DNA of 28,293 nt from a virus (lineage: Duplodnaviria; Heunggongvirae; Uroviricota; Caudoviricetes), in IMG/VR virus record IMGVR_UViG_2667527592_000009, positions 1-28,293 of that record; one strand, written 5' to 3'. This document shows, in pieces, positions 2,486-23,989 of this stretch. A program made the position numbers and the translations under genes. Numbering within the stretch: the first letter of the stretch is position 1; every line of letters begins with the position of its first letter. The notes beneath the pieces were generated by a model. The model was given only the letters and a program-made list of their open reading frames with translations, was not told the origin of the DNA and did not search any database.

Positions 2486-3502
2486 TTAAATTAAGTTATA
2501 AAGAGGGTTTTTTGTTACTGCATCCTCCAGGTGGTCTGGAGAGAAGTGTGCATAAATCATCGTCATTTTAATATCTGAGTGCCCTAAAATATCACGTAAA
2601 ACGAGTATGTTCCCACCGTTCATCATAAAATGGCTGGCAAATGTATGGCGCAGGACGTGGGTGCATTGGCCTTCCGGTAGTTCAATACCGGCCCGTTTTA
2701 CCGCCCGTTCAAAGGCTTTTCTGCATGGTGTGAATAATTTCCCTCGGTTTTTGGGTAGCTCGTTGTACAGATCCTGAGATATCGGTACGGTACGGTTTTT
2801 TTTACCCTTGGTCTTTGTATAGGTAATCCGGTATTTCGATAGTTGATGGCCCTGCAGGTTTTCAGCTTCACTCCAACGAGCACCGGTTGCTAGGCATATT
2901 TTTGCAATCATTAGCAGACTGGGGCTTTGAGAATCAGCACAGGCATCCAGCAGACGTTTAATTTCCTCCGGGGTTAGGAACGCCAGTTCACCCTCCGTAA
3001 TTTTAAATGTTGGAAGCCCGGCAAGCGGGTTGGGGGCTGACCAGTGGCCCAGCTTTTTCAGTGTACCAAAAACAGATGATAGGTTGCGCTGTTCAAGGTT
3101 TACCGTGCGGGGCTTAACGGGTGACATGAACGAGCCGTCTTCATTTTGGACCTCCCCCTTTAATCTGGCTTCCCGATATTTTGTGAAATCACCTGCTGTC
3201 AGCTCAGAGGCGATGGGATCGCCTAGACCATTACAGATAATTCTAAGTTTCGCCATCAGGCGTTTGGGGTCTGCGAGTGTTTGACCATATAGGGAATACC
3301 ACTGCTCAATCACTTCTGATAATCGCCGCCGATCTTCCTTCTCACCAAGCCATGGCTTTTTGTTTACTTCGTTCATGGTGAAGTTTTCGAATGCTATGGC
3401 TTCGCCTTTCGTGGCAAATTGCTTACGCACGCGCTTGCCATTGCGTCCATTGGGATAGCACTCACACAACCATTTTCCGTTCGGCTGTTTTCTGATGGTC
3501 AT
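2486..3502 (-). CDS. int: Tyrosine site-specific integrase, P2/186 family
   Basis: 338-aa ORF with C-terminal catalytic motifs (GARWSEA, HVLRHTFASHF, LGHS...MIYAHF); sits next to the att core and is transcribed toward it; 1-nt gap to upstream cI. Confidence 0.9.
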   Translation of the reverse strand: MTIRKQPNGKWLCECYPNGRNGKRVRKQFATKGEAIAFENFTMNEVNKKPWLGEKEDRRRLSEVIEQWYSLYGQTLADPKRLMAKLRIICNGLGDPIASELTAGDFTKYREARLKGEVQNEDGSFMSPVKPRTVNLEQRNLSSVFGTLKKLGHWSAPNPLAGLPTFKITEGELAFLTPEEIKRLLDACADSQSPSLLMIAKICLATGARWSEAENLQGHQLSKYRITYTKTKGKKNRTVPISQDLYNELPKNRGKLFTPCRKAFERAVKRAGIELPEGQCTHVLRHTFASHFMMNGGNILVLRDILGHSDIKMTMIYAHFSPDHLEDAVTKNPLYNLI

Positions 3503-3503
3503 A

Positions 3504-4136
3504 TCAAAGGCTCTTAATGATTTTCAGTGCACGGCCTACTACCTCAATGTCATCCAGGCCACACTCAAACGATGAATCATCCTGATGCACTACTAATCTG
3601 TTTCCCGGGAGTCGAGTCAATTTAACAATGCTTTTTATCCCGTCGATATCGACTAACCACATACCATTCACTGGTGGTGTTTGGTTGCGATCTATTAAAT
3701 AAGAATCACCAGAAGTAGTCACCAGCAGTAGGTTGCTTGAGTCTGAGGGGAGTATGCTGCTATCAATGATTGCTTTTCCAGCATCGACCAATAAACCACC
3801 GTTGAGAGTCGCCTTGTCAATTTCAGGAGATACTAGTTCAGAAAGAGGTACAACCTTGCTGGAGTTCACGGAATTGATATTTTTTTGGGGTTCAATGTTT
3901 GGACCTGGCTCCCCCTGTCCGGTGGTTAGCCACAGTAAAGAAACTCCTGTTTCCAAGGCGCACTGAATCACCCACTCTGCAGGAAAACTATCTCTTAAGT
4001 ATCTGTTTGCCATGGTGCTTTTTGATGCGCCTAAGTGATCGCAAAGTTGCTGTCTGGACTTGAAATCATAGGCTGCCATTAGTCTATGGATAGCTTCTCT
4101 TCCCCCTGTATTCTCTCCAGCCTTTACCTGTATCAT
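3504..4136 (-). CDS. cI: CI-type immunity repressor (186-like)
   Basis: 210-aa ORF immediately upstream of int on the same strand and divergent from the apl/cII lytic operon; helix-turn-helix-like N-terminal region; RBS AGGA upstream of ATG at 4136. Confidence 0.7.
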   Translation of the reverse strand: MIQVKAGENTGGREAIHRLMAAYDFKSRQQLCDHLGASKSTMANRYLRDSFPAEWVIQCALETGVSLLWLTTGQGEPGPNIEPQKNINSVNSSKVVPLSELVSPEIDKATLNGGLLVDAGKAIIDSSILPSDSSNLLLVTTSGDSYLIDRNQTPPVNGMWLVDIDGIKSIVKLTRLPGNRLVVHQDDSSFECGLDDIEVVGRALKIIKSL

Positions 4137-6331: not shown

Positions 6332-6630
6332 CAGGGGCTGTGCGTATCCATCAATTAAAAATTGCACCTAAGTATTTCAATGCTGTGGTTGCAGGTCAAA
6401 AGACGGCTGAACTTCGTAAAGACGATCGTGGCTATAAAGTTGGTGATGTTCTTTCTCTTTGCGAATGGAAGCATGGCGTATTTACGGGTAGGGAATGGGC
6501 CGCGGTTATCTCTCATGTGCTTCCGGTTAATGACGTCATGGCAGTTTCAGAACAATGGGTGATGCTATCAATTCGCTCATTAACCCCATTAGAAGCTTTA
6601 GGATATGTTATTGCAGGAGGTGCTGTATGA
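6328..6630 (+). CDS. ASCH/DUF3850-like small protein (putative RNA-binding fold)
   Basis: 100-aa ORF from ATG 6328 with RBS GGAGG; family assignment from recalled motif resemblance only; flanked by identical 15-nt junction repeats. Confidence 0.4.
6616..6630 (+). repeat. 15-nt direct repeat GGAGGTGCTGTATGA (copy 2, ASCH-like stop / Dam start junction)
   Basis: Exact match to 6317-6331; both upstream proteins end in GGAV*. Confidence 0.8.
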
Positions 6631-7484
6631 GCACCATCCTGAAATGGGCGGGAAATAAAACCGCAATTATGTCTGAACTGAAAAAACACCTTCCTGCTGG
6701 CCCGCGACTGGTTGAACCTTTCGCGGGTTCCTGTGCTGTGATGATGGAGACGGATTATCCAAGCTATCTGGTTGCGGATATTAATCCTGATTTAATCAAC
6801 CTCTATAAAAAGGTTGCCGCTGATTGTGAATCGTTTATATCTCGCGCCAGAGTTTTATTTAAGGAAGCAAACAGGGAGGTGGCTTATTACAACATAAGGC
6901 AGGAGTTTAATTACTCAAATGAAATTACTGATTTCATGAAAGCGGTATATTTCCTGTATCTCAATCGTCACGGTTACCGTGGTTTATGTCGCTATAACAA
7001 GAGCGGGCATTTCAACATTCCCTACGGTAATTATAAAAATCCGTATTTCCCAGAAAAAGAAATTCGCGCATTTGCAGAAAAAGCCCAGCGGGCAACGTTT
7101 ATCTGCGCCAGCTTTGATGAAACGCTGGCGATGTTGAAGGCGGAGGATGTGGTGTATTGCGATCCGCCGTATGACGGCACGTTTTCCGGTTATCACACTG
7201 ACGGCTTCACTGAAGATGACCAGTATCACCTGGCATCCGTTCTTGAACATCGGTCATCAGAAGGACATCCGGTCATTGTTTCTAACAGTGACACATCCCT
7301 GATCCGTTCGCTGTATCGCAATTTTACTCACCACTACATCAAGGCAAAACGCAGCATCGGTGTGGCAGCTGGCGAGGGTAAATCAGCAACAGAAATCATT
7401 GCTGTTTCCGGGCCGCGCTGCTGGGTGGGATTTGATTATTCGCGTGGCGTGGATAGTTCTGCCGTGTACGGAGTACGTGCATGA
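6627..7484 (+). CDS. dam: DNA adenine methyltransferase (Dam-like, GATC-type N6-adenine MTase)
   Basis: 285-aa product with KWAGNK (AdoMet binding) and DPPY catalytic motif, [15 protein letters not shown] block as in E. coli Dam; start overlaps previous stop and stop overlaps gene A start. Confidence 0.85.
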
Positions 7485-9895
7485 GTCATGCCGATATGAA
7501 CAACTGCTGCGGCTTTAACGAAGCTGCCGCATCGTTCTCATGGAACAGCCCGAAAAAGGCCATTAACCCTTATCTGGACCCGGCGGAAGTTGCGCCGGTT
7601 TCTACGCTTTCAAACCTGATCACTCTGTACGCTGCCGATAACGAGCAGGAACAGCTGCGCCGTGAGGCGCTGAGTGATCAGGTCTGGGAGCGTTATTTCT
7701 TTAATGAATCCCGTGATCCTGTCCAGCGCGAAATGGAGCAGGATAAGCTCATTAGTCGGGCAAAGCTGGCGCATGAGCAGCAGCGTTTTAACCCGGACAT
7801 GGTCATTCTGGCAGACGTCAGCGCCCAGCCCTCCCATATCAGCAAGCCGCTGATGCAACGTATTGAATACTTCAGCAGCCTTGGCAGGCCAAAGGCTTAT
7901 TCCCGCTATTTGCGTGAGACGATTAAGCCATGTCTGGAACGGCTGGAGCATGTACGCGACAGTCAGCTATCCACATCTTTTCGCTTTATGGCAAGCCATG
8001 AAGGGCTGGACGGCCTGCTGATTCTGCCTGAAATGAGTCAGGATCAGGTGAAACGCCTGTCCACCCTTGTTGCTGCGCATATGAGCATGTGCCTTGATGC
8101 AGCTTGTGGCGATTTGTATGCCACCGATGACGTTAAGCCAGAAGAAATCCGCAAGACATGGGAAAAGGTGGCAGCAGAAACCCTGCGACTGGATGTCATA
8201 CCGCCTGCGTTTGAGCAACTCCGCCGGAAAAGAAACCGCCGTAAACCCGTGCCATATGAACTCATTCCGGGTTCGCTGGCGCGTATGTTGTGCGCCGATT
8301 GGTGGTACCGGAAATTATGGAAGATGCGTTGCGAATGGCGGGAAGAGCAGTTGCGTGCTGTTTGCCTGGTCAGCAAAAAAGCATCTCCCTATGTCAGCTA
8401 TGAAGCCGTGATGCATAAACGTGAGCAGCGCCGTAAGTCGCTGGAGTTTTTCCGTTCTCATGAACTGGTGAACGAAGACGGCGACACGCTGGACATGGAG
8501 GATGTGGTAAACGCCAGCAGCAGCAACCCTGCGCATCGCCGCAATGAGATGATGGCCTGTGTTAAAGGTCTGGAGCTTATCGCGGAAATGCGCGGTGACT
8601 GCGCCGTTTTCTACACCATCACCTGTCCGTCACGTTTCCATTCCACGCTAAATAACGGCAGGCCCAACCCGACCTGGACAAATACGACGGTAAGACAAAG
8701 CAGTGATTATCTGGTCGGCATGTTTGCTGCATTTCGTAAGGCGATGCACAAAGCCGGATTGCGCTGGTATGGCGTGCGGGTGGCTGAGCCGCATCATGAC
8801 GGTACAGTTCACTGGCACCTGTTGTGTTTTATGAGCAAAAAAGATCGCCGCACCATTACTGCTTTGTTGCGTAAGTTTGCCATTCGTGAAGACCGCGAGG
8901 AGCTGGGTAATAACACGGGACCACGCTTTAAGTCTGAGCTGATAAACCCGCGCAAAGGTACGCCAACAAGCTACATCGCGAAATACATCAGTAAGAACAT
9001 TGACGGGCGTGGTCTGGCTGGCGAGATCAGCAAGGAAACGGGTAAATCCCTGCGTGATAACGCTGAATACGTTAATGCCTGGGCGTCTCTGCATCGTGTT
9101 CAGCAATTCCGCTTCTTTGGCATTCCGGGGCGTCAGGCTTACCGTGAACTGCGATTGCTGGCTGGTCAGGCGGCAAGGCAACAGGGGGACAAAAAAGCAG
9201 GTGCGCCGGTACTGGATAACCCGCGCCTTGATGCAATCCTGGCTGCTGCTGATGCTGGTTGTTTTGCCACCTACATCATGAAGCAGGGCGGCGTACTGGT
9301 TCCCCGCAAATATCACCTCATCAGAACTGCTTATGAAATCAACGAAGAACCGACCGCATATGGCGATCACGGTATTCGTATTTATGGCATCTGGTCACCC
9401 ATTGCAGAGGGCAAGATCTGCACTCATGCGGTGAAGTGGAAAATGGTTCGTAAGGCCGTTGACGTTCAGGAGGCGGCAGCCGACCAGGGCGCTTGCGCCC
9501 CTTGGACTCGTGGCAATAACTGTCCCCTTGCTGAAAATTTGAACCAACAAGGGAAAGACAAATCAGCTGATGGGGATACCAGAACGGACATTACCCGCAT
9601 GGATGACAAGGAGTTGCACGAATACCTGCACAGTATGAGCAAAAAAGAGCGCCGGGAACTGGCTGCAAGGTTACGCCTGGTGAAACCGAAACGGCGTAAA
9701 GACTACAAACAGCGAATTACAGACCATCAGCGACAGCAGCTCGTCTATGAACTGAAGTCCAGAGGATTTGATGGCAGCGAGAAAGAGGTCGATTTACTCC
9801 TTCGCGGCGGCAGTATTCCGTCAGGAGCAGGCCTGCGTATCTTCTATCGGAACCAGCGTTTGCAGGAAGATGATAAGTGGCGGAACCTGTATTAA
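7481..9895 (+). CDS. A: Replication initiation endonuclease, P2 gpA family (rolling-circle initiator)
   Basis: 804-aa ORF with HUH-like TVHWHLLCF and two-tyrosine YIAKYISK motifs; position after the early operon as in P2/186. Confidence 0.85.
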
Positions 9896-10007: not shown

Positions 10008-10047
10008 GTTATATGTACAGTATTTCTTTGGTGTCATAGGAGGAAAG

Positions 10048-10236
10048 ATGCAGGACTATTTTTTGGAGTCTTTGAAGCTCCAGCGCATTGATTTTTTTCT
10101 TAAGCTTGTAGCGGCTAGTGAGTGTAGTGATGAAGAGAAGGGGCTGGCTCTGCAGTGGGTTTCTGAATTGACTGATGAACTCATGGCAAAAATCAGAACC
10201 CACGAATACAACCGCTCAATGGATGTCATCAGCTGA
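10048..10236 (+). CDS. Small SOS-controlled protein (candidate antirepressor, Tum-position analogue)
   Basis: 62-aa ORF with strong RBS (TAGGAGGAAAG) downstream of the LexA box; first gene of a two-gene module with the DinI homologue. Confidence 0.45.
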   Translation: MQDYFLESLKLQRIDFFLKLVAASECSDEEKGLALQWVSELTDELMAKIRTHEYNRSMDVIS

Positions 10237-10246
10237 GGTGACCTTT

Positions 10247-10480
10247 ATGCGCATTGAAATAATGATCGATAAAGAGCAGAAGATTAGCCAGTCTACCCTG
10301 GACGCCCTTGAATCCGAGCTTTACCGCAATCTGCGCCCCCTGTATCCCAAAACGGTAATTCGCATCCGCAAAGGTAGCTCTAACGGTGTGGAACTGACCG
10401 GACTGCAACTGGACGAAGAAAGAAAACAAGTGATGAAGATTATGCAGAAGGTGTGGGAAGACGACAGCTGGCTGCATTAA
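10247..10480 (+). CDS. dinI: DinI-family protein (RecA co-protease modulator)
   Basis: 77-aa ORF MRIEIMIDK...DALESEL...WEDDSWLH aligns by eye with E. coli DinI (MRIEVTIAK...DALAGEL...WESADDW); RBS GAGGTG. Confidence 0.75.
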   Translation: MRIEIMIDKEQKISQSTLDALESELYRNLRPLYPKTVIRIRKGSSNGVELTGLQLDEERKQVMKIMQKVWEDDSWLH

Positions 10481-10639
10481 GAAAAGTTGCTGGCGTCTGA
10501 ACTTGGTTCTGGCGTCAGCAAGGTTGAACAACGAGTACAGTGAGGCGTTAGGTGTGGCGTTTATTTGATGAGTGAACGCCCGTTCTGCGACAGGTTCGGA
10601 GATTAAGGTTGAAACTACGGGCAAAATACCATCTTTTTC

Positions 10640-11065
10640 CTACTTAATTGAGTCCAGTAACAAGTTACAGTTACTCTCATTGTAGAGAGAACGAGCAATT
10701 AGTGTTACCTGCTTTCCATTCATTCCCGGCTTATCCCATAACACAGCTTCTTGCGACGCCACAAATTCAGCATAATCAATTATGCGTTGTTCGTGATCTG
10801 GTTCCTCATAGCCAAAGTATGAGAGCGCATCGTTGTAAGCGTGGTAAGCTGCTTTCTGTAATATCTTGATATCGGCTGTAGGTACTTGCTCCGTGTAGCT
10901 AGGATCTAATTGTGTGCTACTGCCATAGAATGCACATGAAAGGTAAGATATTGATTTCTGTTGAGCTTTAGTTCCTTTCTCATAGTTTTTAGCTGTTACC
11001 GCCTGAACTGGGACGCTAACAAAGCTTGCAACCAGAATTAAAATTAATACGTAAAAGCTTTTCAT
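10640..11065 (-). CDS. Hypothetical exported protein (signal peptide), moron near cos
   Basis: 141-aa ORF with N-terminal signal peptide MKSFYVLILILVASFVSVPVQA; RBS GAGG; opposite strand to neighbours. Confidence 0.55.
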   Translation of the reverse strand: MKSFYVLILILVASFVSVPVQAVTAKNYEKGTKAQQKSISYLSCAFYGSSTQLDPSYTEQVPTADIKILQKAAYHAYNDALSYFGYEEPDHEQRIIDYAEFVASQEAVLWDKPGMNGKQVTLIARSLYNESNCNLLLDSIK

Positions 11066-11338
11066 TTTGACCTCAGCCGAAACGTTAGAGAGACTATCGA
11101 AATTTGTAAAACCCGTGGCGATTCAGTTTGAGATCCTCCCCCTTACATGATTTTTAATCAAATATATGCTTTTGTAAGCATACCTGTTAACCGAATTATT
11201 TATTTTTAGAGATCTTCCGACATACTGATTATGCCCGCTGAGGAGTTCACCTTGCGTAAGGTCCGATTCGCTTTACTCGTCTGTGCATGTCTATGCTGCA
11301 TGAGATTGCATGATCGTTTGAGGATCGTTTTTGCTAAG

Positions 11339-11362
11339 GCCCGCCAGAACTGGCGGGCTTTT
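11339..11362 (+). terminator. Rho-independent terminator (plus strand), no obvious upstream gene
   Basis: GCCCGCCAG-aa-CTGGCGGGC followed by TTTT (11359-11362). Confidence 0.5.
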
Positions 11363-11407
11363 GCGTAGATCATGCACCTGCATGAAAACCACTACATAAA
11401 GCGGGCA

Positions 11408-11426
11408 GGCGTGGCGGGGATACGAG
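11408..11426 (+). other. cos-like cohesive-end site (P2/186 GGCG(A/T)GGCGGGGA motif)
   Basis: GGCGTGGCGGGGA at 11408-11420 followed by GC-rich AGCGCGCGCT, resembling the recalled P2/186 19-nt cohesive end; located between the post-A module and portal gene Q as in P2. Confidence 0.4.
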
Positions 11427-11496
11427 CGCGCGCTCAGTGTAGATATTTGAAATATATTACTGGAAATGAAGACGTTGAAATGGTAGTTTCATTTAT

Positions 11497-11627
11497 GCGC
11501 ATGTAGGCAGATTTGTTGGTTGTGTATCACAACCAGTGATTTTAATGGCAGGTGGAATCGCATCCCTGACATCCTTGTTTCGTCGCTATAGGGCCGTTGT
11601 GCTGTGCGAAGGAGTGCCTACATGCGT
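11497..11627 (+). ncRNA. msr-msd: Retron msr/msd non-coding region (template for msDNA), flanked by a1/a2 inverted repeats
   Basis: 12-bp inverted repeats CGCATGTAGGCA (11498-11509) and TGCCTACATGCG (11615-11626) about 105 nt apart; G at 11510 is a branch-G candidate; internal stem TGGTTGTG-tat-CACAACCA (11517-11535); ends 38 nt before the RT start codon. Confidence 0.55.
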
Positions 11628-11665
11628 TCTTCCTCTCTTACTAACTTCTACGATAAAATATAATT

Positions 11666-13426
11666 ATGGTCGCAACTTCTAAATTACTACTTTTGAAAGT
11701 CGCAGCATCTCGTGCTGACTTGGCAAAATTGCTAGATGTTAAGTTGGTGTTTTTAACGAATATTCTTTACAGAATTGGTACTGATAATCAGTATAAAGAT
11801 TTCTCTATTCCAAAAAAAGGTAAGGGAGTCAGATTGATTTCTGCGCCAGAAGATAGTTTGAAAGATCTCCAAAGACGAATAGCCGATCTTTTAATGGAGT
11901 GTAGAGATGAAACTTTCAAAATTAAAAAAATTAAAAACAATTACTCCTTTGGTTTTGAAAGAAATAAGTCAATAATTTCCAATGCTTTCAGACATCGTGG
12001 GAAAAATATAATACTCAATATTGATCTTAAGGATTTTTTCAAAAGCTTTAATTTTGGGCGAGTGAGAGGGTACTTCCTATCCAATAGGGATTTCTTATTA
12101 AATCCGATTGTCGCCACTACTTTAGCTAAAGCCGCATGCTATAAGGGAAGTTTGCCTCAGGGTAGCCCGTGTTCTCCAGTGATAACAAACTTAATTTGTA
12201 GCATTATGGATATTAGATTAGCTAAATTAGCAAAGAGTTTAGGTTGTTCATATAGTCGTTATGCCGATGACATCACGTTTTCAACTAATAAAAAAGAATT
12301 TCCTACCGATTTGGCAATATCTCTTCCTGAGGGGGTTGTCTTGGGGAGCATTCTTGTCAGTGAAATAAAACGTGCTGGTTTTGATATTAATGATGCTAAA
12401 ACAAGGATCTCGTACAAATCCACGAGACAAGAAGTTACGGGACTTACTATAAATAGATTTGTTAACGTTGATAGGAAATATTCGAATAAAACAAGAGCAT
12501 TAGCTCATTCACTTTATAGTAAGGGAGAATATAAGCTACCTGATGAAGATGGTAAGCTAGTCGTGGGGAGTATCGAAAAACTAGAGGGAAGATTTGGGTT
12601 TATTGACCAGATTGATAAATTTAATAACATACAAGATAAAATAAGTAAACAGCCTGAAAAATATGCGCCTATTCATATTACATTAAAAAACTACAGGTTA
12701 AAGCTGAATGTACGAGAGAAGGCATATAGTAAATTTATTTACTACAAGTTTTTTCATGGACATGCTTCCCCGACAATCTTGACAGAAGGCAAAACTGATC
12801 GAGTATATTTAAAATCAGCTATTCGTTCACTTTCTGCCAAATTTCCTGAGTTGCTCAAGAAAAGCACAGACGGTAAAGGAAATGATATCAACTTGAATAT
12901 TTTTAAATCTGATGAGAAGTCAAGTTATTTTATTAATATGTCTGGAGGTAGCGCAGATCTTAAAAAATTCATCGAAAGATATATGGATGAATATTCAAGC
13001 TACTATGGAAGCATTCCTAAGCACCCGGTTATCATGGTATTGGACAACGATTCTGGTTCTAATGAGATTTTGAATTTCCTTAAAAATAATGTTAAGGGCT
13101 GCCCCGATGATACCAATAAAATGAGAAAAATGAGATTTATCCATGTCTTTAAAAATCTCTATATCATTCTAACGCCTTTAAGTGCTACTGGTGAGCAGAC
13201 TGCGATGGAAGATCTTTTTACTCATGATGTATTATCAACTATTCTTGGTGGTAAAAAATTTAACAAAAAGAACGATGGGGACTCAAAAACTGAATATGGG
13301 AAACATGTTTTCTCTGTGAAAGTAGTTAGGGATAAAAAACGAAAAGTTGATTTTAGTGGTTTTGAAATAATACTCAACACTTTTAAAGATGTTTTTGAAC
13401 ATTATAAAAAAATATGCAGCATATAG
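11666..13426 (+). CDS. ret: Retron reverse transcriptase fused to C-terminal TOPRIM (OLD-like) domain, Retron-Ec67 type
   Basis: 586 aa; RT motifs [25 protein letters not shown] (nt 12260-12271), VTGLTIN; C-terminal TOPRIM signatures ILTEGKTD and VLDNDSGS; AT-rich. Confidence 0.85.
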
Positions 13427-13470
13427 AAAGAAAGCCCTAGTGAAAATGATAATATACTAGGGCCATGATT

Positions 13471-14508
13471 CTAATTATCTGATAAATTGTATGGTTTGAA
13501 TTTTATGGCTTCCTCTTCTAGCCACAAATTAAGCTCTTCTAAACGCCTTTGTAGAGGAATTAATTCATTCCTCACAAATACCATACTCGCTTTCTCCACA
13601 TCCCCAAACCCCCCAACATTATTCGGCATGATCCCTATCATCTGCGGTGGCACGCGGTGCGCAGCCATCATGTCATCCCGGCTCACGTTCTTGATATTCA
13701 GAAACTCATCCTTCGCCGCGACTTCTGACAGAGGAATGATCTGAAGTCCGTCCTTTTTGCCGTTGGGCGAGTACATAAACAGATTACGGAAGTTGCCAGG
13801 GCCTTTGGCGCTTTTCATCGCATTGCGGAGGTTGTTCACGTCCTCCTGGTTCTGCGCGGCATCGGTCATGTACATGATGAAGCCTGCATGGCTGCCGTTG
13901 ATGTAATACTTACGGCGGAACAGCGTGGCGGACTCGTTGAGCAGGGCTGACGGAATGGCAGAAAGATAACCGGGCAGGCCGTAGATCTCCTGGTTGATGT
14001 CCGGTTCCATCAGATGAAAAATGCTGCCTTTCGTGAACTGATACGGCTGCGTAGTCATGCCGTATTGCACAAACCAGTAGGTATCCAGGTCTAATCCGCG
14101 TCGGGTGTATTTTGCCAGCACAGGCTCAAGGGCGATAACTTCACCGAACCGGTTTGTGCGTTTCTCCAGGTAGGCGTTACCAAATACCAGATAGTCCTGC
14201 ACAAAACGTGAAAAATCCTGCTGGCTGAGCAGCGGGTGAGGGATGTAGGTACTGGTCAGAATGTTGCACTTTACTGCAATCGGGGAGCTGTGATGTACGG
14301 CAGCGCGGAAGGTTCGCGCCAGTCCGTCAAAACTCACTGGCGGCTCATACCAGCGATCTGTCTGTACGCATTCCACATAGTCCAGCAGTTCACGGCGGTC
14401 CAGAACCGGAACGGGATCGCCGAAGCTGAATGCTTCGGCTGAAGTCTGGTTTTTATGCTTGAGCTGATTCGTCGCCGCAGCGCGGTTTTTCTTACTCTTT
14501 CCCATCAA
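13471..14508 (-). CDS. Q: Portal protein (P2 gpQ-like)
   Basis: 345-aa ORF divergent from O-N-M-L, overlapping terminase gene by 4 nt (ATGA on minus strand); size and position as P2 Q. Confidence 0.85.
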   Translation of the reverse strand: MMGKSKKNRAAATNQLKHKNQTSAEAFSFGDPVPVLDRRELLDYVECVQTDRWYEPPVSFDGLARTFRAAVHHSSPIAVKCNILTSTYIPHPLLSQQDFSRFVQDYLVFGNAYLEKRTNRFGEVIALEPVLAKYTRRGLDLDTYWFVQYGMTTQPYQFTKGSIFHLMEPDINQEIYGLPGYLSAIPSALLNESATLFRRKYYINGSHAGFIMYMTDAAQNQEDVNNLRNAMKSAKGPGNFRNLFMYSPNGKKDGLQIIPLSEVAAKDEFLNIKNVSRDDMMAAHRVPPQMIGIMPNNVGGFGDVEKASMVFVRNELIPLQRRLEELNLWLEEEAIKFKPYNLSDN

Positions 14509-16271
14509 AAAATCTCCACAATATTGCTGGTATTGGCGGATTCGCCCTGCAGCGGTTCGTTAAACAATGCGTGCATCGTTGCCCAGGCCAGATCGGCGTG
14601 GCTGGCTTCTTCGCTGCGGCTGGCTTCATAGGTCGGGCGGTTGCCGCTGGCGGTGGTGGCGCGACGGATTGCCATGAATGACTGCGCAATGTCGGTGTGC
14701 CCGGCGTCAAACTCCAGACGGCGGTGGCTGATAATGTCGTAGGCCTTGAGTACCAGGGCGTTTTTAACGTTGGGGTTGTAGACAAACTCCCGGACGGCTG
14801 GAAAAAACGCTTTCACGTTCTCGTAAACCCCGTGGCCGACGCCAGTTGAGTCGATACCGATGTATGTCACGTTGTACTGTTCGGTCAGTTTTTTGATGGC
14901 GTCAGCCTGGGCGCGGAAGTCCATCCCGCGCCACTGGTGACGCTCAAGAATGCGGAACTTACCGCCCGGCACGGCTGGCGGTGCCACCACCACGCACCCG
15001 GCGCTGTCGCCGTTTTGCGTACCTTTTGCCGGGTCATAACCGATCCACACTTCGCGCCAGCCAAACGGGCGCAGGGCCAGTGCATGAAAGTCGGTCCAGA
15101 CTTCCCAGCTGTCCACCATGCACGCCTGCAGCTCGCTGAGCGGGAACACGGACGCGAGATCGTCCACGAATTCACACATCAGCAGGTTCTGGTATTCGTC
15201 CGGGCTGTATTCCATGCGCAACTGGTCAAGGTCGAACAGGTTACAGCCGCCGCGCACCGCATCTTCCACGGTGACTATCTGGCGGTATTGCCCGTCTGCA
15301 CACAGCAGGCCTGGAGCCAGATTGCTGTGGGACAGGTCGATGTCCACCTTGTCGGCTTTATTGCGCCCACGGTTGAATAGCGCACCGGACCAGAACGGAT
15401 AAGCACTGTGTGTCAGGCTGGATGGCGTGGAAAAATAGGTTTGTCGCCATTTTTTGTGAATAGCCATACCGGAAGCCACTTTGCGCAGCTCCTGGAATTT
15501 CGGTATCCAGAAATATTCATCCAGATACAGGTTGCCGTGGTAACTCTGGGCCGTGCGGGCATTGGTGCCGAGGAAATACAGTGTGGCCCCGTTGGGAAGC
15601 ACCATCGGATCGCCTTTCAGCTCCACTTCCACTTCTTTGGCGAAGTCGATGATGTACTGCTTAAAGACGTGGGCCTGTGCCTTGCTGGCGGAAAGGAAAA
15701 TCTGGTTACGTCCGGTAAGCAGAGCGTCAATCAGGGCTTCACGGGCAAAGTAAAAGGTCGCGCCGATCTGGCGTGACTTCAGCAGGTTGCGGATGCGGTT
15801 GGTTTTTCCGGCTTCCCACCAGTGGCGCTGGTAGTTGAACATGGAGGAATGGAAGATTTCTTCCAGCTTCTCAATCTGTTCATCGGTGAAAACGTTCTTT
15901 TCCGGCTGACGGCGCGGGCCTTTGTTGCGGTTGGCGACGTTAGGGTTTAAGTCGGCTTCGTTGCCGCCATTGTTAAACTTGCCGATCCGCGCATGGCGCT
16001 CCGACTGGCGCGCCAGCAGGTCAATCTCTTTGAAATCTTTCCCTTCTTTGTGCTCCTTCATAATGAGCTGGCAGTAGCGTGCGGCGGTGGTGAGCTGCAT
16101 CTGATCCAGCGGCCCATAGTCACCCCACTTGTCGCGTTTTTTCCAGCTGTGAACGGTTGCAACTTTCTCGCCCAGCATTTCGGCAATGCGGGCTACGCGG
16201 TATCCCTGAAAGTACAGCAGCATGGCCTGCCGACGGGGATCGAGATCTGCGGGTGTCAGTGTGGTGTTCAT
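14505..16271 (-). CDS. P: Terminase large (ATPase) subunit (P2 gpP-like)
   Basis: 588-aa ORF upstream of Q on the same strand. Confidence 0.85.
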   Translation of the reverse strand: MNTTLTPADLDPRRQAMLLYFQGYRVARIAEMLGEKVATVHSWKKRDKWGDYGPLDQMQLTTAARYCQLIMKEHKEGKDFKEIDLLARQSERHARIGKFNNGGNEADLNPNVANRNKGPRRQPEKNVFTDEQIEKLEEIFHSSMFNYQRHWWEAGKTNRIRNLLKSRQIGATFYFAREALIDALLTGRNQIFLSASKAQAHVFKQYIIDFAKEVEVELKGDPMVLPNGATLYFLGTNARTAQSYHGNLYLDEYFWIPKFQELRKVASGMAIHKKWRQTYFSTPSSLTHSAYPFWSGALFNRGRNKADKVDIDLSHSNLAPGLLCADGQYRQIVTVEDAVRGGCNLFDLDQLRMEYSPDEYQNLLMCEFVDDLASVFPLSELQACMVDSWEVWTDFHALALRPFGWREVWIGYDPAKGTQNGDSAGCVVVAPPAVPGGKFRILERHQWRGMDFRAQADAIKKLTEQYNVTYIGIDSTGVGHGVYENVKAFFPAVREFVYNPNVKNALVLKAYDIISHRRLEFDAGHTDIAQSFMAIRRATTASGNRPTYEASRSEEASHADLAWATMHALFNEPLQGESANTSNIVEIF

Positions 16272-18325: not shown

Positions 18326-18976
18326 ATGAGCCTGAGTCCCGCACGGCAGCATCGCCTGCGCGTTCAGGCTGAACAGGCCGCCCGCGAGGGCGGCAGTGTT
18401 CGCCACGCGTCGGGCTATGACCTGATGCTGCTGCAACTGGCGGAAGACCGCCGCCGTCTCAAGGGCGTTCAGTCCACGGTGAAAAAAGCGGAAATCAAAG
18501 TGGAGCTGTTGCCGAAGTACGCCGCCTGGGCGGAGGGTGTCCTGGCTGCCGGAGGCGCTCAACAGGATGACGTGCTGATGTACGTGATGCTGTGGCGCAT
18601 TGATGCCGGAGATTATGCCGGGGCGCTGGAGATCGGGCGTCATGCCCTGCGTCATGGCTGGGTGATGCCGCTGGGTAACCGCAACGTGCAGACCGTGCTG
18701 GCAGAGGAAATGGCAGACGCCGCACAGAGCGCAATGCTTGCCGCCACCGGCTTTGATGTCGATCTGTTGCTGCAGACGCTGGAGCTGACAGACGGTCTGG
18801 ATATGCCGGACCAGTCACGGGCGCGTCTGCATAAAGCGATTGGCGCGGTCTTGAGTGAAAGTAATCCGGCTTCCGCCCTTAATCATCTCAACCATGCGTT
18901 ACAGCTCGATCCCCGCTGTGGCGTGAAAAAAGACAAACAGCAGCTGGAGCGCAGACTGCGCAATGACAGCCGCTGA
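18326..18976 (+). CDS. M: Terminase small/endonuclease subunit (P2 gpM-like)
   Basis: 216-aa ORF following N. Confidence 0.75.
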   Translation: MSLSPARQHRLRVQAEQAAREGGSVRHASGYDLMLLQLAEDRRRLKGVQSTVKKAEIKVELLPKYAAWAEGVLAAGGAQQDDVLMYVMLWRIDAGDYAGALEIGRHALRHGWVMPLGNRNVQTVLAEEMADAAQSAMLAATGFDVDLLLQTLELTDGLDMPDQSRARLHKAIGAVLSESNPASALNHLNHALQLDPRCGVKKDKQQLERRLRNDSR

Positions 18977-22288: not shown

Positions 22289-23989
22289 TTATTCAAGGTG
22301 ATTTGAAAGAGTAATTAATGGCTCAATCGGTTGGAACGCTTTTAAGGATGTTAATATGTTTTTAACTTCCTTTGATACGATAGATAACGGGTTGTCTGTT
22401 ACAGATAAGTAGGTGGTTAAATCTTGACCTGAAACACGGATAACATGTGGTAATATCGCAGTTATAACTGGTGTCCAAAGGTCGATTAAATCATCCAGAG
22501 AGTTATTTTTAGATAATGCTGTATCATATTTATATTTTATTTTCTTCTTGTTCAAAGGTTTATCTGTTAATTCTTCAAGTATTTCTCCGATGACGGATAT
22601 TAAAAAGAATCGAGACTTTAAATTTTGGAGGAATAATAAGTTATCCTCATCTACTTTAATTTTATTCTCTTTTGCACGGATTTGAGATTTTACTTTTTCT
22701 ATAGCTTTTGAAATAGTGTAAGCACATAAAATATGCTGGGCTTTCGAATCATGAAAGGCATTGTCATAGGCTGATTTTGTATCGAAAACGTAGTTTTTAC
22801 CTCTATTGGCGCTAACATAATCCCCATGTAACGCTATCAGCGGTTGAGCAACAGACTCAATGCCAAATAAAGAACCAGTATTTTCGAAGCCGCGTTTCAG
22901 TGAATATGTATAACCAAGAGTGGAAAATTCTTCTGCCACCTGTTTTTGTTCTGTGCTGTTAGAGTAGTGATCCCAGGTTGTAATATGATTCTGAGTATTA
23001 TTATACTGGACTATTTTTTTTACTTTGTCCGCATCATTACATTCAATAACCTTACAAAGGACTTTTAGGCCATCTAATTTTTGTATATCTTGAACTGAAC
23101 CAATAGAACCAGTGGTTTGAGCTCCATTTATGATTGAAACTCCTTCCAACAACCCTTTTTCTTTGTTGAATTTTGTTGTTAGGATTGATACACCATTGTT
23201 AAAGACAAAGAAGTCTTTTGGGGATGTTTCTGCGGTATTCTTAATTGATGAGTTTATTTTTCTTCTCTTATTTAATCCCATGAACCCCCTATAATTAGCA
23301 GAAAATAATTCTGCTCCATAATTTTTGTATAAATAATTTAGCCAAGTGCCGTTTGCAAAGCCAACATGTGAAGTCCAGCCATCACCTTGTACAGAATTTA
23401 TAAGTTCGCCATTGAACTTTATATTGTCAGTCACAACAATTTGTTGTGATAGCGCAATATACAATTTTTCAAGACTATTAACACCAAGTTCTCTGTAAGT
23501 TACCTCAATTTCTTTGTCTGCAAATCTACCTGCTAGATAGTCACGACAAGTTTCAAGCTCAGTTTTAACCTGCTCAGATTCGGCACAATTATGGATATAT
23601 AATAATTCAACAGCTTCAATTTCGTTATCATCAATTAATTTTCTAACCTCAGAAATTTTTGCTCTTAATTTTGCATTTGGAGACTCTCCTGAGCCTGCCA
23701 TAATCCACGCTAAAGCAGTGTTTAAGTCAGAAGCTTTATTTGCAGGCGCAACTATTTTAAGTGCTTGCTGATTGCAATAGTAACCCTGAGCAATAAATAA
23801 CGTTGAATTAATTACGGTAATGAAGTCTATTTTCTTATCGTTTCCACCATCAGTAAGTCCATCAGATGCTAGCTTATCAAAATCGGATTCATCTAAGTAA
23901 AGACCTAATGACCATAAAAGATGTGCGTTACTAGTCCCGTACTTTTCTAACAGGGAAGTTTTATTTTGCAGTTGTCTTAAGTGTTCCAT
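22289..23989 (-). CDS. Large AT-rich hypothetical protein, AIPR-like abortive-infection candidate (defence moron)
   Basis: 566-aa minus-strand ORF interrupting the otherwise contiguous S-V late-gene order; markedly AT-rich; own terminator; AIPR-family call is from recalled sequence character and is unverified. Confidence 0.5.
   Translation of the reverse strand: MEHLRQLQNKTSLLEKYGTSNAHLLWSLGLYLDESDFDKLASDGLTDGGNDKKIDFITVINSTLFIAQGYYCNQQALKIVAPANKASDLNTALAWIMAGSGESPNAKLRAKISEVRKLIDDNEIEAVELLYIHNCAESEQVKTELETCRDYLAGRFADKEIEVTYRELGVNSLEKLYIALSQQIVVTDNIKFNGELINSVQGDGWTSHVGFANGTWLNYLYKNYGAELFSANYRGFMGLNKRRKINSSIKNTAETSPKDFFVFNNGVSILTTKFNKEKGLLEGVSIINGAQTTGSIGSVQDIQKLDGLKVLCKVIECNDADKVKKIVQYNNTQNHITTWDHYSNSTEQKQVAEEFSTLGYTYSLKRGFENTGSLFGIESVAQPLIALHGDYVSANRGKNYVFDTKSAYDNAFHDSKAQHILCAYTISKAIEKVKSQIRAKENKIKVDEDNLLFLQNLKSRFFLISVIGEILEELTDKPLNKKKIKYKYDTALSKNNSLDDLIDLWTPVITAILPHVIRVSGQDLTTYLSVTDNPLSIVSKEVKNILTSLKAFQPIEPLITLSNHLE

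Follow-up and report, generated by a model that had tools for sequence, protein, structure and literature searches.

We report an analysis of the IMG/VR virus record IMGVR_UViG_2667527592_000009 (Caudoviricetes), the whole 28,293-nucleotide stretch of which is referred to here as the window. From gene A on the left, the window passes through a DinI/Tum-like gene, a cos site, a retron and the portal gene to the two terminase genes, and its end falls inside tail genes (Table 1). The DinI/Tum gene is of the 186 type, which makes induction through the SOS response plausible. The start of the portal gene was taken from the RefSeq annotation of the prophage of E. coli GF4-3, and the amino acid identity of the portal body to its relatives is 85-98%.

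Table 1. Positions of genes, sites and RNA elements in the window
Feature	Position	Strand	Details
Gene A	7481-9895
DinI/Tum-like gene	10175-10480
Left variable slot	10481-11282	.	between DinI/Tum-like gene and cos island
141-aa ORF	10640-11065	-	signal-peptide-like N-terminus; in left variable slot
cos island, 151 bp, conserved	11283-11433	.	five TGCAT, terminator hairpin and cos core
TGCAT motifs in cos island	11284, 11297, 11307, 11379; 11372		11372 on minus strand
Strong terminator hairpin	11338-11361		followed by TTTT; inside cos island; equivalent of 186 t95b (186 annotation)
cos core, 55 bp	11379-11433	+	29-bp left arm, 19-nt cohesive-end homologue, CGCGCGC
Predicted cohesive end GGCGTGGCGGGGATACGAG	11408-11426	+	in register with annotated cosL/cosR of P2 and cos of 186
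Proposed exchangeable AT-rich module	11434-13585	.	promoter region, msr-msd, RT-TOPRIM, terminator hairpin, last 38 portal codons
Putative retron promoter	11461-11489	+	-35 TGGAAA 11461-11466; 17-nt spacer; -10 TAGTTT 11484-11489
msr-msd ncRNA gene	11496-11627	+	directly upstream of RT gene
Parts of msr-msd	11497-11509; 11517-11535; 11547-11613; 11615-11627		a1; msr stem-loop; 67-nt msd template; a2
Predicted branching G	11510		inside CAGA, after a1
RT-TOPRIM fusion, 586 aa	11666-13426	+	Ec67 family, type I-C; Pfam, NCBIfam, PADLOC, Eco2 structures
Hairpin in 44-bp RT-Q gap	13431-13465	-	minus strand: hairpin, then UUUCUUUCU
Portal gene 3' end, last 38 codons and stop	13471-13585	-	GC 0.32
Portal gene body, conserved (P2 Q / 186 W homologue)	13586-14505	-	Pfam Phage_portal 1.5e-18
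Large terminase subunit (P2 P homologue)	14505-16271	-	Terminase_6N 3e-65, Terminase_6C 1.7e-49, Terminase_5 3e-27
Small terminase subunit (M homologue)	18326-18976	+	Phage_term_smal 2.6e-40

The cos site and the retron beside it

An initial annotation of this DNA had likened a 13-nt motif, GGCGTGGCGGGGA, to the cohesive ends of P2 and 186. The motif is found at 11408-11420 on the plus strand, where it opens a 19-nt homologue, GGCGTGGCGGGGATACGAG, which on alignment agrees with the cohesive end of 186 at 15 of 19 positions and with that of P2 at 14 of 19. The flanking context is also the same as in these phages, with ...TGCATGAAAACC...AAAGCGGGCA to the left and CGCGCGC to the right. Within the 55-bp core, the left arm matches 186 at 24 and P2 at 20 of its 29 positions, and the right arm, which is identical to that of P4, matches both at 6 of 7. 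The core is identical in Fels-2 and two E. coli prophages, other relatives having one to three differences in the left arm, and the 19-nt end together with the right arm is identical in Fels-2, Cartapus and others. A 64-nt query spanning the core matched 45 phage records at 90-100% identity, and the complete P2/P4-type core is common to Fels-2, SopEPhi, Cartapus and about 40 other phage records. The variant present here reads ATACGAG rather than AAAGCAT/C, and Cartapus annotates its own cos only as 'putative'.

The core is part of a conserved island. Amongst 116 distinct relatives, per-position conservation is 0.8-1.0 over 11283-11397, a segment which lay outside the search pattern used to collect these relatives, and is at background on either side of the island. 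The hairpin inside the island folds with -23.4 kcal/mol (z = -4.1). On the basis of these alignments, the core is a cos of the P2/186/P4 type with a predicted cohesive end.

To the right of cos, the RT-TOPRIM gene is the sole ORF of at least 60 aa in 11434-13470, with no separate effector gene, and the presence of a retron, as first annotated, is borne out by its protein, by its RNA gene and by alignment to Retron-Eco2. The protein matches Pfam RVT_1 (4e-27), NCBIfam NF038237 retron_Ec67_fus (685.4 bits against a cut-off of 450) and PADLOC RT-Toprim_I-C (1e-212), and residues 1-583 align with the solved structures of Eco2, 9lm3 and 9i2f, without a single gap (E = 1e-287) and at 70% identity, or 75% in the RT half and 65% in the TOPRIM half. 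The catalytic residues are all kept, namely YADD199-202 and E374, D378, D460 and D462, the last four being those mutated in the Eco2 dTOPRIM variant (PMC12916289). RefSeq already names this protein as an Ec67-family lineage (WP_069891469.1).

Since Rfam returned no RNA family in 10500-14000, even at permissive E-value thresholds, the msr-msd gene was defined by alignment with Ec67-family loci. It aligns with three others, 5 pairs showing compensatory changes, and three lineages of the Ec67 family that occupy this slot keep the pairing by such changes. The a1 and a2 arms form a perfect inverted repeat of 12-13 nt and the RNA folds with -53.2 kcal/mol (z = -3.3). CAGA is the reported priming context of Ec67 (PMC6868368), and Eco2 has its branch point at G15 and a 67-nt product (PMC12916289). 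Folded alone as DNA, the predicted 67-nt msDNA has no stability above that of shuffled sequences (z = 0.2-0.8), a result that says little, since the msDNA of Eco2 forms an intermolecular branched scaffold. In a generic sigma-70 scan, numbers stayed at background and the retron promoter was not called; its putative assignment in Table 1 follows from positional conservation only, its hexamers coinciding in the alignment with TGGAAA/TATTTT of canonical Ec67 loci. Judged by its sequence, the locus is a type I-C retron of the Ec67 (Retron-Eco2) family, complete and with a single gene.

It resembles Retron-Eco2 (Ec67) itself in occupying the same slot of a 186-related prophage, directly right of cos and before the portal stop, in the order of msr-msd and a single 586-aa RT-TOPRIM gene, and in the 67-nt msd, the CAGA branch context and all catalytic residues. 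However, the proteins are 70% and the DNA about 73% identical, the msd differs at many positions, and the portal tail and terminator hairpin differ too; the retron of the window is a distinct lineage within the Ec67 family. Retron-Eco1 (Ec86) occupies the same cos-terminator site in other E. coli strains (PMC6868368) and has a homologous RT (E = 2e-35), but it is a type II-A retron with a separate effector gene, no TOPRIM fusion and an unrelated msr-msd.

A variable slot and its edges

The retron occupies one of two variable slots that are divided by the cos island, the transitions from conserved to variable DNA being sharp at 11283, 11434 and about 13585. The insert had been described as some 2 kb of AT-rich DNA, and its GC content is indeed 0.34-0.40, against 0.53-0.55 in the flanks. 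From the cohesive end to the portal stop there are 2044 nt (11427-13470), in comparison to 167 nt to the Q stop in P2 and 176 nt to the W stop in 186. The gap of 44 bp noted earlier between the RT and Q genes is exact (13427-13470, the RT ORF ending at 13426 and the portal stop codon starting at 13471), but the cassette does not end there. On the left it begins abruptly at 11434, with 7 bp between it and the cohesive end, and on the right it runs about 115 nt into the portal gene, to about codon 307/308, where the GC content changes from 0.32 to 0.55 and nucleotide identity amongst relatives drops.

The 44-bp gap holds a hairpin which, as minus-strand RNA, folds with -18.1 kcal/mol (z = -4.3), none of 200 shuffles being as good. 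The hairpin is followed on this strand by UUUCUUUCU, which makes it a terminator that the module itself brings for the P-Q late operon. Relatives each have a different hairpin in the same place, and terminators are annotated as tQ in P2 and tW in 186; the hairpin of the window replaces these.

Across 93 loci with the same cos core, the slot between cos and the portal gene has 64 different occupants and ranges from 131 to 3521 nt, so that retron-free relatives do not share the spacing found here; about ten of the slots are 'empty' (131-154 nt), like those of P2 and 186. Left of 11283 conservation is likewise at background in the 116 relatives, and different genes lie in the left slot of relatives. 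The 141-aa ORF found there hits phrog_7437 (function unknown); Pfam, NCBIfam and PADLOC gave no match for it. It is the positional equivalent of the accessory exclusion genes adjoining cos in P2 (tin/old) and 186 (orf97), which also lie on the left side of cos and not, like the retron, on the right.

Acquisition of cargo at a genome-end hotspot, as the initial annotation proposed, agrees with the published reading and with the varying content of the slot. As cited in PMC6868368 and PMC7826664, Dodd & Egan (1996) described how, in a 186-related prophage, Ec67 and Ec86 take the place of about 180 bp that otherwise lead from cos to the terminator of the packaging genes. Rousset et al. (2022, PMC9122126) present the cos-proximal gpA-gpQ region as a defence hotspot and list retrons amongst its occupants, and exchange by recombination is proposed for this region there and in PMC13586616. 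The retron of the window sits in this gpA-gpQ hotspot of P2-like phages; its arrangement next to cos has been known since 1996, and the hotspot since 2006 and 2022. As in this hotspot and the psu-int hotspot of P4, the subject of the same two papers, the slot adjoins cos and is filled with highly diverse AT-rich defence cargo. Their hotspot descriptions are at gene level, and the text available contains neither the two slots split by the 151-bp cos island nor the reach of the right slot 38 codons into the portal gene.

At the 3' end of the portal gene, 38 codons vary with the cargo. Their amino acid pattern, VFVRNEL.PLQ.R..E.N.WL, is kept while the DNA differs between cargo types, and in 78 distinct tails the GC content of the tail tracks that of the cargo (Spearman 0.73, p = 2.5e-14). 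Local drift was rejected as the main cause of the AT-rich portal tail, because loci with the same cargo often have 100% identical tails although the adjacent portal DNA is just 91-96% identical. We tentatively suggest that the unit of exchange may be a block that brings its own terminator for the late operon and its own version of the final 38 codons of the portal gene, rather than an intergenic cassette, and that each defence cargo might travel with a private, compositionally matched portal C-terminus.

Packaging and the arrival of the cassette

The reading developed here starts from the identity of cos, and a 13-nt motif, on which alone the initial suggestion was based, could be a chance match with the true cos elsewhere. 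This is extremely improbable: with one mismatch allowed, a mean of 0.06 matches to GGCGTGGCGGGGA is expected in shuffled sequence, whereas the motif occurs once in the window, nothing comparable to cos maps anywhere else within it, and the similarity continues over a 55-bp core and a conserved block of 151 bp, placed, as is canonical, with the A/DinI side to the left and the portal gene to the right. Genes and site follow in the order A, DinI, cos, Q, P and then M, with the cognate terminase genes nearby. With cos so placed, the insertion may have displaced packaging signals to its right, leaving a packaging-defective or cryptic prophage. In lambda, cosB is a packaging signal of the kind that such a view invokes, and about 160 bp of GC-rich DNA found right of cos in P2 and 186 is missing from the window. 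Comparison answers the earlier question of whether such signals are intact. Conservation collapses exactly at 11434 and, position by position in the 116 distinct relatives, no conserved sequence is found in any of them more than 7 bp right of the cohesive end; P4, which is packaged by the P2 terminase, shares with P2 only the same 7 bp. The worry over lost signals is thus unfounded, and we regard a packaging defect of this origin as very unlikely. The conserved sequence, including the TGCAT repeats, is left of cos, the portal and both terminase subunits are full-length, and Fels-2, SopEPhi, RE2010, Yersinia MLG42, Cartapus and Klebsiella KP12, all deposited as phage genomes, carry this core with unrelated cargo behind it. 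As far as sequence comparison can tell, packaging should be unaffected, all group-conserved cos-proximal bases being inside or left of the intact 55-bp core.

How the cassette came to lie beside cos is a separate question. An early view held the 34-kb 'retron Ec67' to be a potential transposable element, mobility having been proposed by Hsu et al. (1990, as cited in PMC7826664), and a retron able to bring itself to cos, through retrotransposition, transposition or site-specific activity, would account for the presence, at one and the same junction, of three different lineages of the Ec67 family and of further cargos with an RT. Dozens of unrelated cargos that lack an RT use junction 11434 as well, however, and the old '34-kb retron' has 26-bp repeats that are prophage att sites. 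A repeat search found no direct or inverted repeats bracketing 11434 and 13585, which is evidence against transposition, and with unrelated cargos sharing these boundaries the cassette does not qualify as an autonomous mobile element; retron RTs are without known mobility function (PMC6868368). Over 10026-13623 the window differs from the E. coli GF4-3 prophage at one position, and the flanks differ by 4-7%. This near-identical 3.6-kb block, common to the window and a diverged E. coli prophage, points to homologous recombination, and it extends well past the retron on both sides, portal codons included. Self-mobility of the retron is slightly less probable still than a packaging defect. We favour a course in which the cassette did not transpose: the whole block of cargo, own terminator and last 38 portal codons would have been swapped between P2-like phages by homologous recombination, with crossovers in conserved flanking phage DNA, the right-hand one in the portal body and the left-hand one in the cos island or in gene A. 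It is, on this evidence, very probable that the window represents a P2/186-like (Peduoviridae) prophage with cos at 11379-11433, which carries a complete Ec67-family retron as cos-portal cargo in a block gained by homologous recombination and with packaging unaffected.

Proposed action of the retron and relevance of the locus

The action proposed for the retron is drawn by homology to Eco2, the mechanism of which is described in PMC12916289; the promoter, msDNA production, trigger and tRNA target, like the cleavage at cos, are here inferred only. The msr-msd RNA would be transcribed from its own promoter, and the RT would prime on the 2'-OH of G11510 and copy the msd template of 67 nt to give msDNA. 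This would then assemble RT-TOPRIM trimers and cage the TOPRIM nuclease until, on degradation of the msDNA by a nuclease of the infecting phage (of DenB/A1 type), the freed TOPRIM domain would cut tRNAs, stop translation and abort the infection. By this analogy the retron is most likely accessory anti-phage cargo, and at 70% identity its trigger and target specificity could differ from those of Eco2.

As a discovery the locus carries little weight, Ec67 and Ec86 having long been known beside cos and the protein being already named; its value is practical, as a clean case with full annotation. The part of cos that has to be kept is narrowed to the 55-bp core and the 151-bp island, and 2 kb of foreign DNA are seen to follow cos+7 with no conserved packaging sequence touched, a help in engineering P2/P4 cosmids and phage cargo. 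The locus also offers a natural variant of Eco2, 70% identical, on which structure-function studies or work on retron editors could draw. What the cargo-linked portal tail adds to the picture of hotspot turnover is small but can be checked. If the exchange unit is as tentatively suggested, breakpoints would concentrate in one short conserved stretch of the portal gene (codons about 290-307) to the right and in the 151-bp cos island to the left, and a long circulation of cargo modules amongst AT-richer P2-like phages would be suggested; were this general and previously undescribed, it would provide a concrete, testable mechanism for the turnover of the hotspot in P2-like phages.

A retron of the Ec67 family next to cos

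The DNA that separates cos from the portal gene (the homologue of Q in P2 and W in 186) was initially described as AT-rich, with 44 bp remaining between the RT stop and the portal stop. Its GC content is indeed 0.34-0.40 over 11434-13470, as compared to 0.53-0.55 in the flanks, and exactly 44 nt lie between the end of the RT ORF at 13426 and the start of the portal stop codon at 13471. The 586-aa ORF is an RT-TOPRIM fusion of the Ec67 family: it matches RVT_1 in Pfam (4e-27), retron_Ec67_fus in NCBIfam (685 bits, cut-off 450) and RT-Toprim_I-C in PADLOC (1e-212), and it aligns without gaps to the solved structures (9lm3 and 9i2f, E = 1e-287) of Eco2 (Ec67), a type I-C retron to which it is 70% identical. 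YADD199-202, E374, D378, D460 and D462 are all retained, and Eco2 loses its defence when the matching residues are mutated (PMC12916289).

The upstream msr-msd gene can be aligned with three further loci of the Ec67 family, found in E. coli genomes, with compensatory changes keeping five base pairs; no Rfam model detects it. By homology to Eco2, at 70% identity, msDNA would assemble and cage RT-TOPRIM trimers and would be degraded by a phage nuclease, and the freed TOPRIM would cut tRNAs (PMC12916289).

Features of the prophage and its retron region
Feature	Coordinates	Strand	Remarks
Host glaH	1-978	minus	
216-aa ORF	1821-2471	minus	sole match phrog_21256, function unknown
Integrase	2486-3502	minus	
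CI repressor	3504-4136	minus	
Dam-type methylase, D12 class	6555-7484		directly before gene A; PF02086, 3e-77
Replication protein A	7481-9895		
DinI/Tum-like gene	10175-10480		
141-aa ORF	10640-11065	minus	signal-peptide-like N-terminus; sole match phrog_7437, unknown function
Terminator hairpin	11338-11361		strong, left of cos core; -23.4 kcal/mol; equivalent of 186 t95b
msr-msd a1 and a2	11497-11509, 11615-11627		perfect inverted repeat
G after a1	11510		within CAGA, which PMC6868368 reports as an unusual context for priming in Ec67
msr stem-loop	11517-11535		
msd template	11547-11613		67 nt
RT-TOPRIM	11666-13426		
Module hairpin	13431-13465	minus	-18.1 kcal/mol, then UUUCUUUCU; takes place of tQ (P2), tW (186)
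Portal	13471-14505	minus	
Large terminase	14505-16271	minus	
Small terminase	18326-18976		scaffold, capsid, lysis and tail genes in same right-hand part
Second AT-rich island	22289-23989	minus	GC ~0.33; between tail genes S and V (P2 orf30 position); 566-aa AIPR / AbiU / Abi-alpha-like protein

The cos site and its packaging signals

The motif GGCGTGGCGGGGA, singled out in the initial annotation for its likeness to the P2/186 cohesive end, occurs once in the window, at 11408-11420, where 0.06 chance matches are expected with one mismatch allowed. Alignment of the window with the joined ends of the P2, 186 and P4 records reveals it as the start of a 19-nt cohesive-end homologue, GGCGTGGCGGGGATACGAG (11408-11426), identical at 15/19 positions to 186 and 14/19 to P2, with conserved flanks, TGCATGAAAACCACTACATAAAGCGGGCA to its left and CGCGCGC to its right. 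P2 and P4 are homologous at cos over exactly the same extent, 29 + 19 + 7 = 55 bp, which we term the cos core (11379-11433). Fels-2, Cartapus, the circular E. coli element CP019275 and E. coli prophages carry the cohesive-end variant and its right arm unchanged; the entire core is identical in Fels-2 and two of the E. coli prophages, the others having 1-3 left-arm differences. A 64-nt query across the core matches 45 phage records at 90-100% identity, RE2010, SopEPhi and a Yersinia phage among them.

Per-position conservation was assessed in 116 distinct sequences, taken from 120 viral contigs carrying the 36-nt centre of the core and from the loci of our other comparisons. It reaches 0.8-1.0 over 11283-11397, a stretch outside the search pattern, and falls to background from 11282 leftward and from 11434 rightward, thereby delimiting a conserved 'cos island' of 151 bp (11283-11433). 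Conserved sequence beyond the core itself is found only on the left, and the strong terminator hairpin at 11338-11361 is part of it. Just left of the core, the stretch 11283-11397 holds five TGCAT motifs inside 100 bp, the whole 28.3-kb window having 58; they occupy highly conserved columns, and P2, P4 and 186 have comparable repeats to the left of cos. The five motifs are candidates for terminase recognition and lie entirely on the side that the retron leaves untouched.

Rightward from the cohesive end, past 7 bp, nothing is conserved in any relative among the 116 sequences. P4, which is packaged by the P2 terminase, likewise shares with P2 no more than the same 7 bp on this side. On the question, raised initially, of whether packaging signals right of cos are intact, these comparisons therefore point to no recognisable signal having been displaced by the retron.

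Slot occupants, module boundaries and route of acquisition

The slot, running from cos+7 to the portal stop, was clustered across 93 loci that share the cos core and in which a portal gene can be recognised. Since these yield 64 sequence clusters of 131-3521 nt and ten of the loci are 'empty' (131-154 nt, GC-rich; 160 nt in P2 by the same measure, 169 nt in 186), the retron is one among many alternative cargos. The cos-portal spacing first remarked on is not shared by retron-free relatives. None of the 60 records in the phage collection that match the flanks matches the retron; their slots contain AIPR, Abi-alpha-like, Hypoth_Ymh, DUF4145 and unannotated genes. Among complete E. coli genomes, 1274/5426 match some part of the region and only 14 match at least 80% of it. 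One of these, strain GF4-3 (NZ_CP053258), is near-100% identical, with a single difference over 2351 bp, and its gene is named "retron Ec67 family RNA-directed DNA polymerase/endonuclease" in RefSeq; the remaining 13, at about 73% identity, are canonical Ec67. A third Ec67-family lineage (55% protein identity) occupies the same slot in other strains. The present retron is a distinct, already catalogued lineage of the family.

The exchangeable AT-rich module (11434-13585) has a sharp left boundary at 11434. At the other end, the final 38 codons of the portal gene (13471-13585, minus strand) have a GC content of 0.32, against 0.53 in the rest of the gene; the amino-acid pattern VFVRNEL.PLQ.R..E.N.WL is kept and the DNA differs between every cargo type. 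Tail GC rises and falls with cargo GC (Spearman 0.73, p = 2.5e-14, 78 distinct tails), at 0.54 (GC-rich) in empty and 0.37 in occupied slots, whilst the 100 codons ahead of the tail are constant at 0.526 ± 0.015. Loci sharing a cargo often have 100% identical tails beside portal DNA just 91-96% identical; between loci with different cargos, mean identity is 61% in the tail versus 85% upstream. Each module carries its own hairpin directly after the portal stop. Judged from these sequences, the unit exchanged on the right takes in these 38 codons along with a terminator of its own; the right boundary of the cassette is not in the 44-bp gap.

Over 10026-13623 a single position separates the window from the GF4-3 prophage, with 4-7% divergence either side, resuming at 13624 within the portal gene. 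Such a 3.6-kb block is the mark of homologous recombination that took place recently in the phage genes on its flanks, and it gives evidence of a swap of the A-end/DinI/cos/retron/portal-tail module. Self-insertion of the retron next to cos is very unlikely, given that a repeat search found no direct repeats bracketing the cassette and that the junction also serves unrelated cargos that lack an RT. Recombinational exchange also agrees with models discussed for the cos-proximal hotspot in PMC9122126 and PMC13586616.

Prophage context and known arrangements

The window is a P2/186-like prophage. The host glaH/csiD gene at its edge shares just 90-95% identity with the gene found in most complete E. 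coli genomes, so the host may be a divergent Escherichia lineage. The prophage occupies another chromosomal site than the GF4-3 prophage, whose cargo differs in both the integrase and the tail slot. A Dam-type methylase gene is likewise reported for the original 34-kb 'retron Ec67' element. A third AT-rich stretch (1000-2480, GC 0.32-0.44), containing the 216-aa ORF, lies between glaH and the integrase, where GF4-3 has a DUF4041 gene. The 141-aa ORF, without a match in Pfam, NCBIfam or PADLOC, occupies a second variable slot left of cos, the place of orf97 in 186 and tin/old in P2. The island between the tail genes is probably a further defence cargo slot; E. coli S88, MS7163 and BEN5202 carry it with 100% identity, and in GF4-3 a different gene takes its place.

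According to Dodd & Egan 1996, as cited in PMC6868368 and PMC7826664, Ec67 and Ec86 stand in place of about 180 bp that would otherwise link cos to the packaging-gene terminator of a 186-related prophage, the very arrangement seen here. The retron also sits within the gpA-gpQ cos-proximal hotspot of Rousset et al. 2022, whose survey describes 1650 arrangements in 18,150 loci, retrons included (PMC9122126). The initial reading, cargo acquisition at a genome-end hotspot, is correct and already published (PMC6868368, PMC7826664, PMC9122126); the retron next to cos is a real finding that was rightly interpreted and is not new. There are two small additions, of which the accessible literature holds no mention and which Dodd & Egan 1996 and Odegrip et al. 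2006 may note: the hotspot is divided into two slots by the 151-bp cos island, and the unit exchanged on the right extends over the portal gene's final 38 codons and a terminator of its own.
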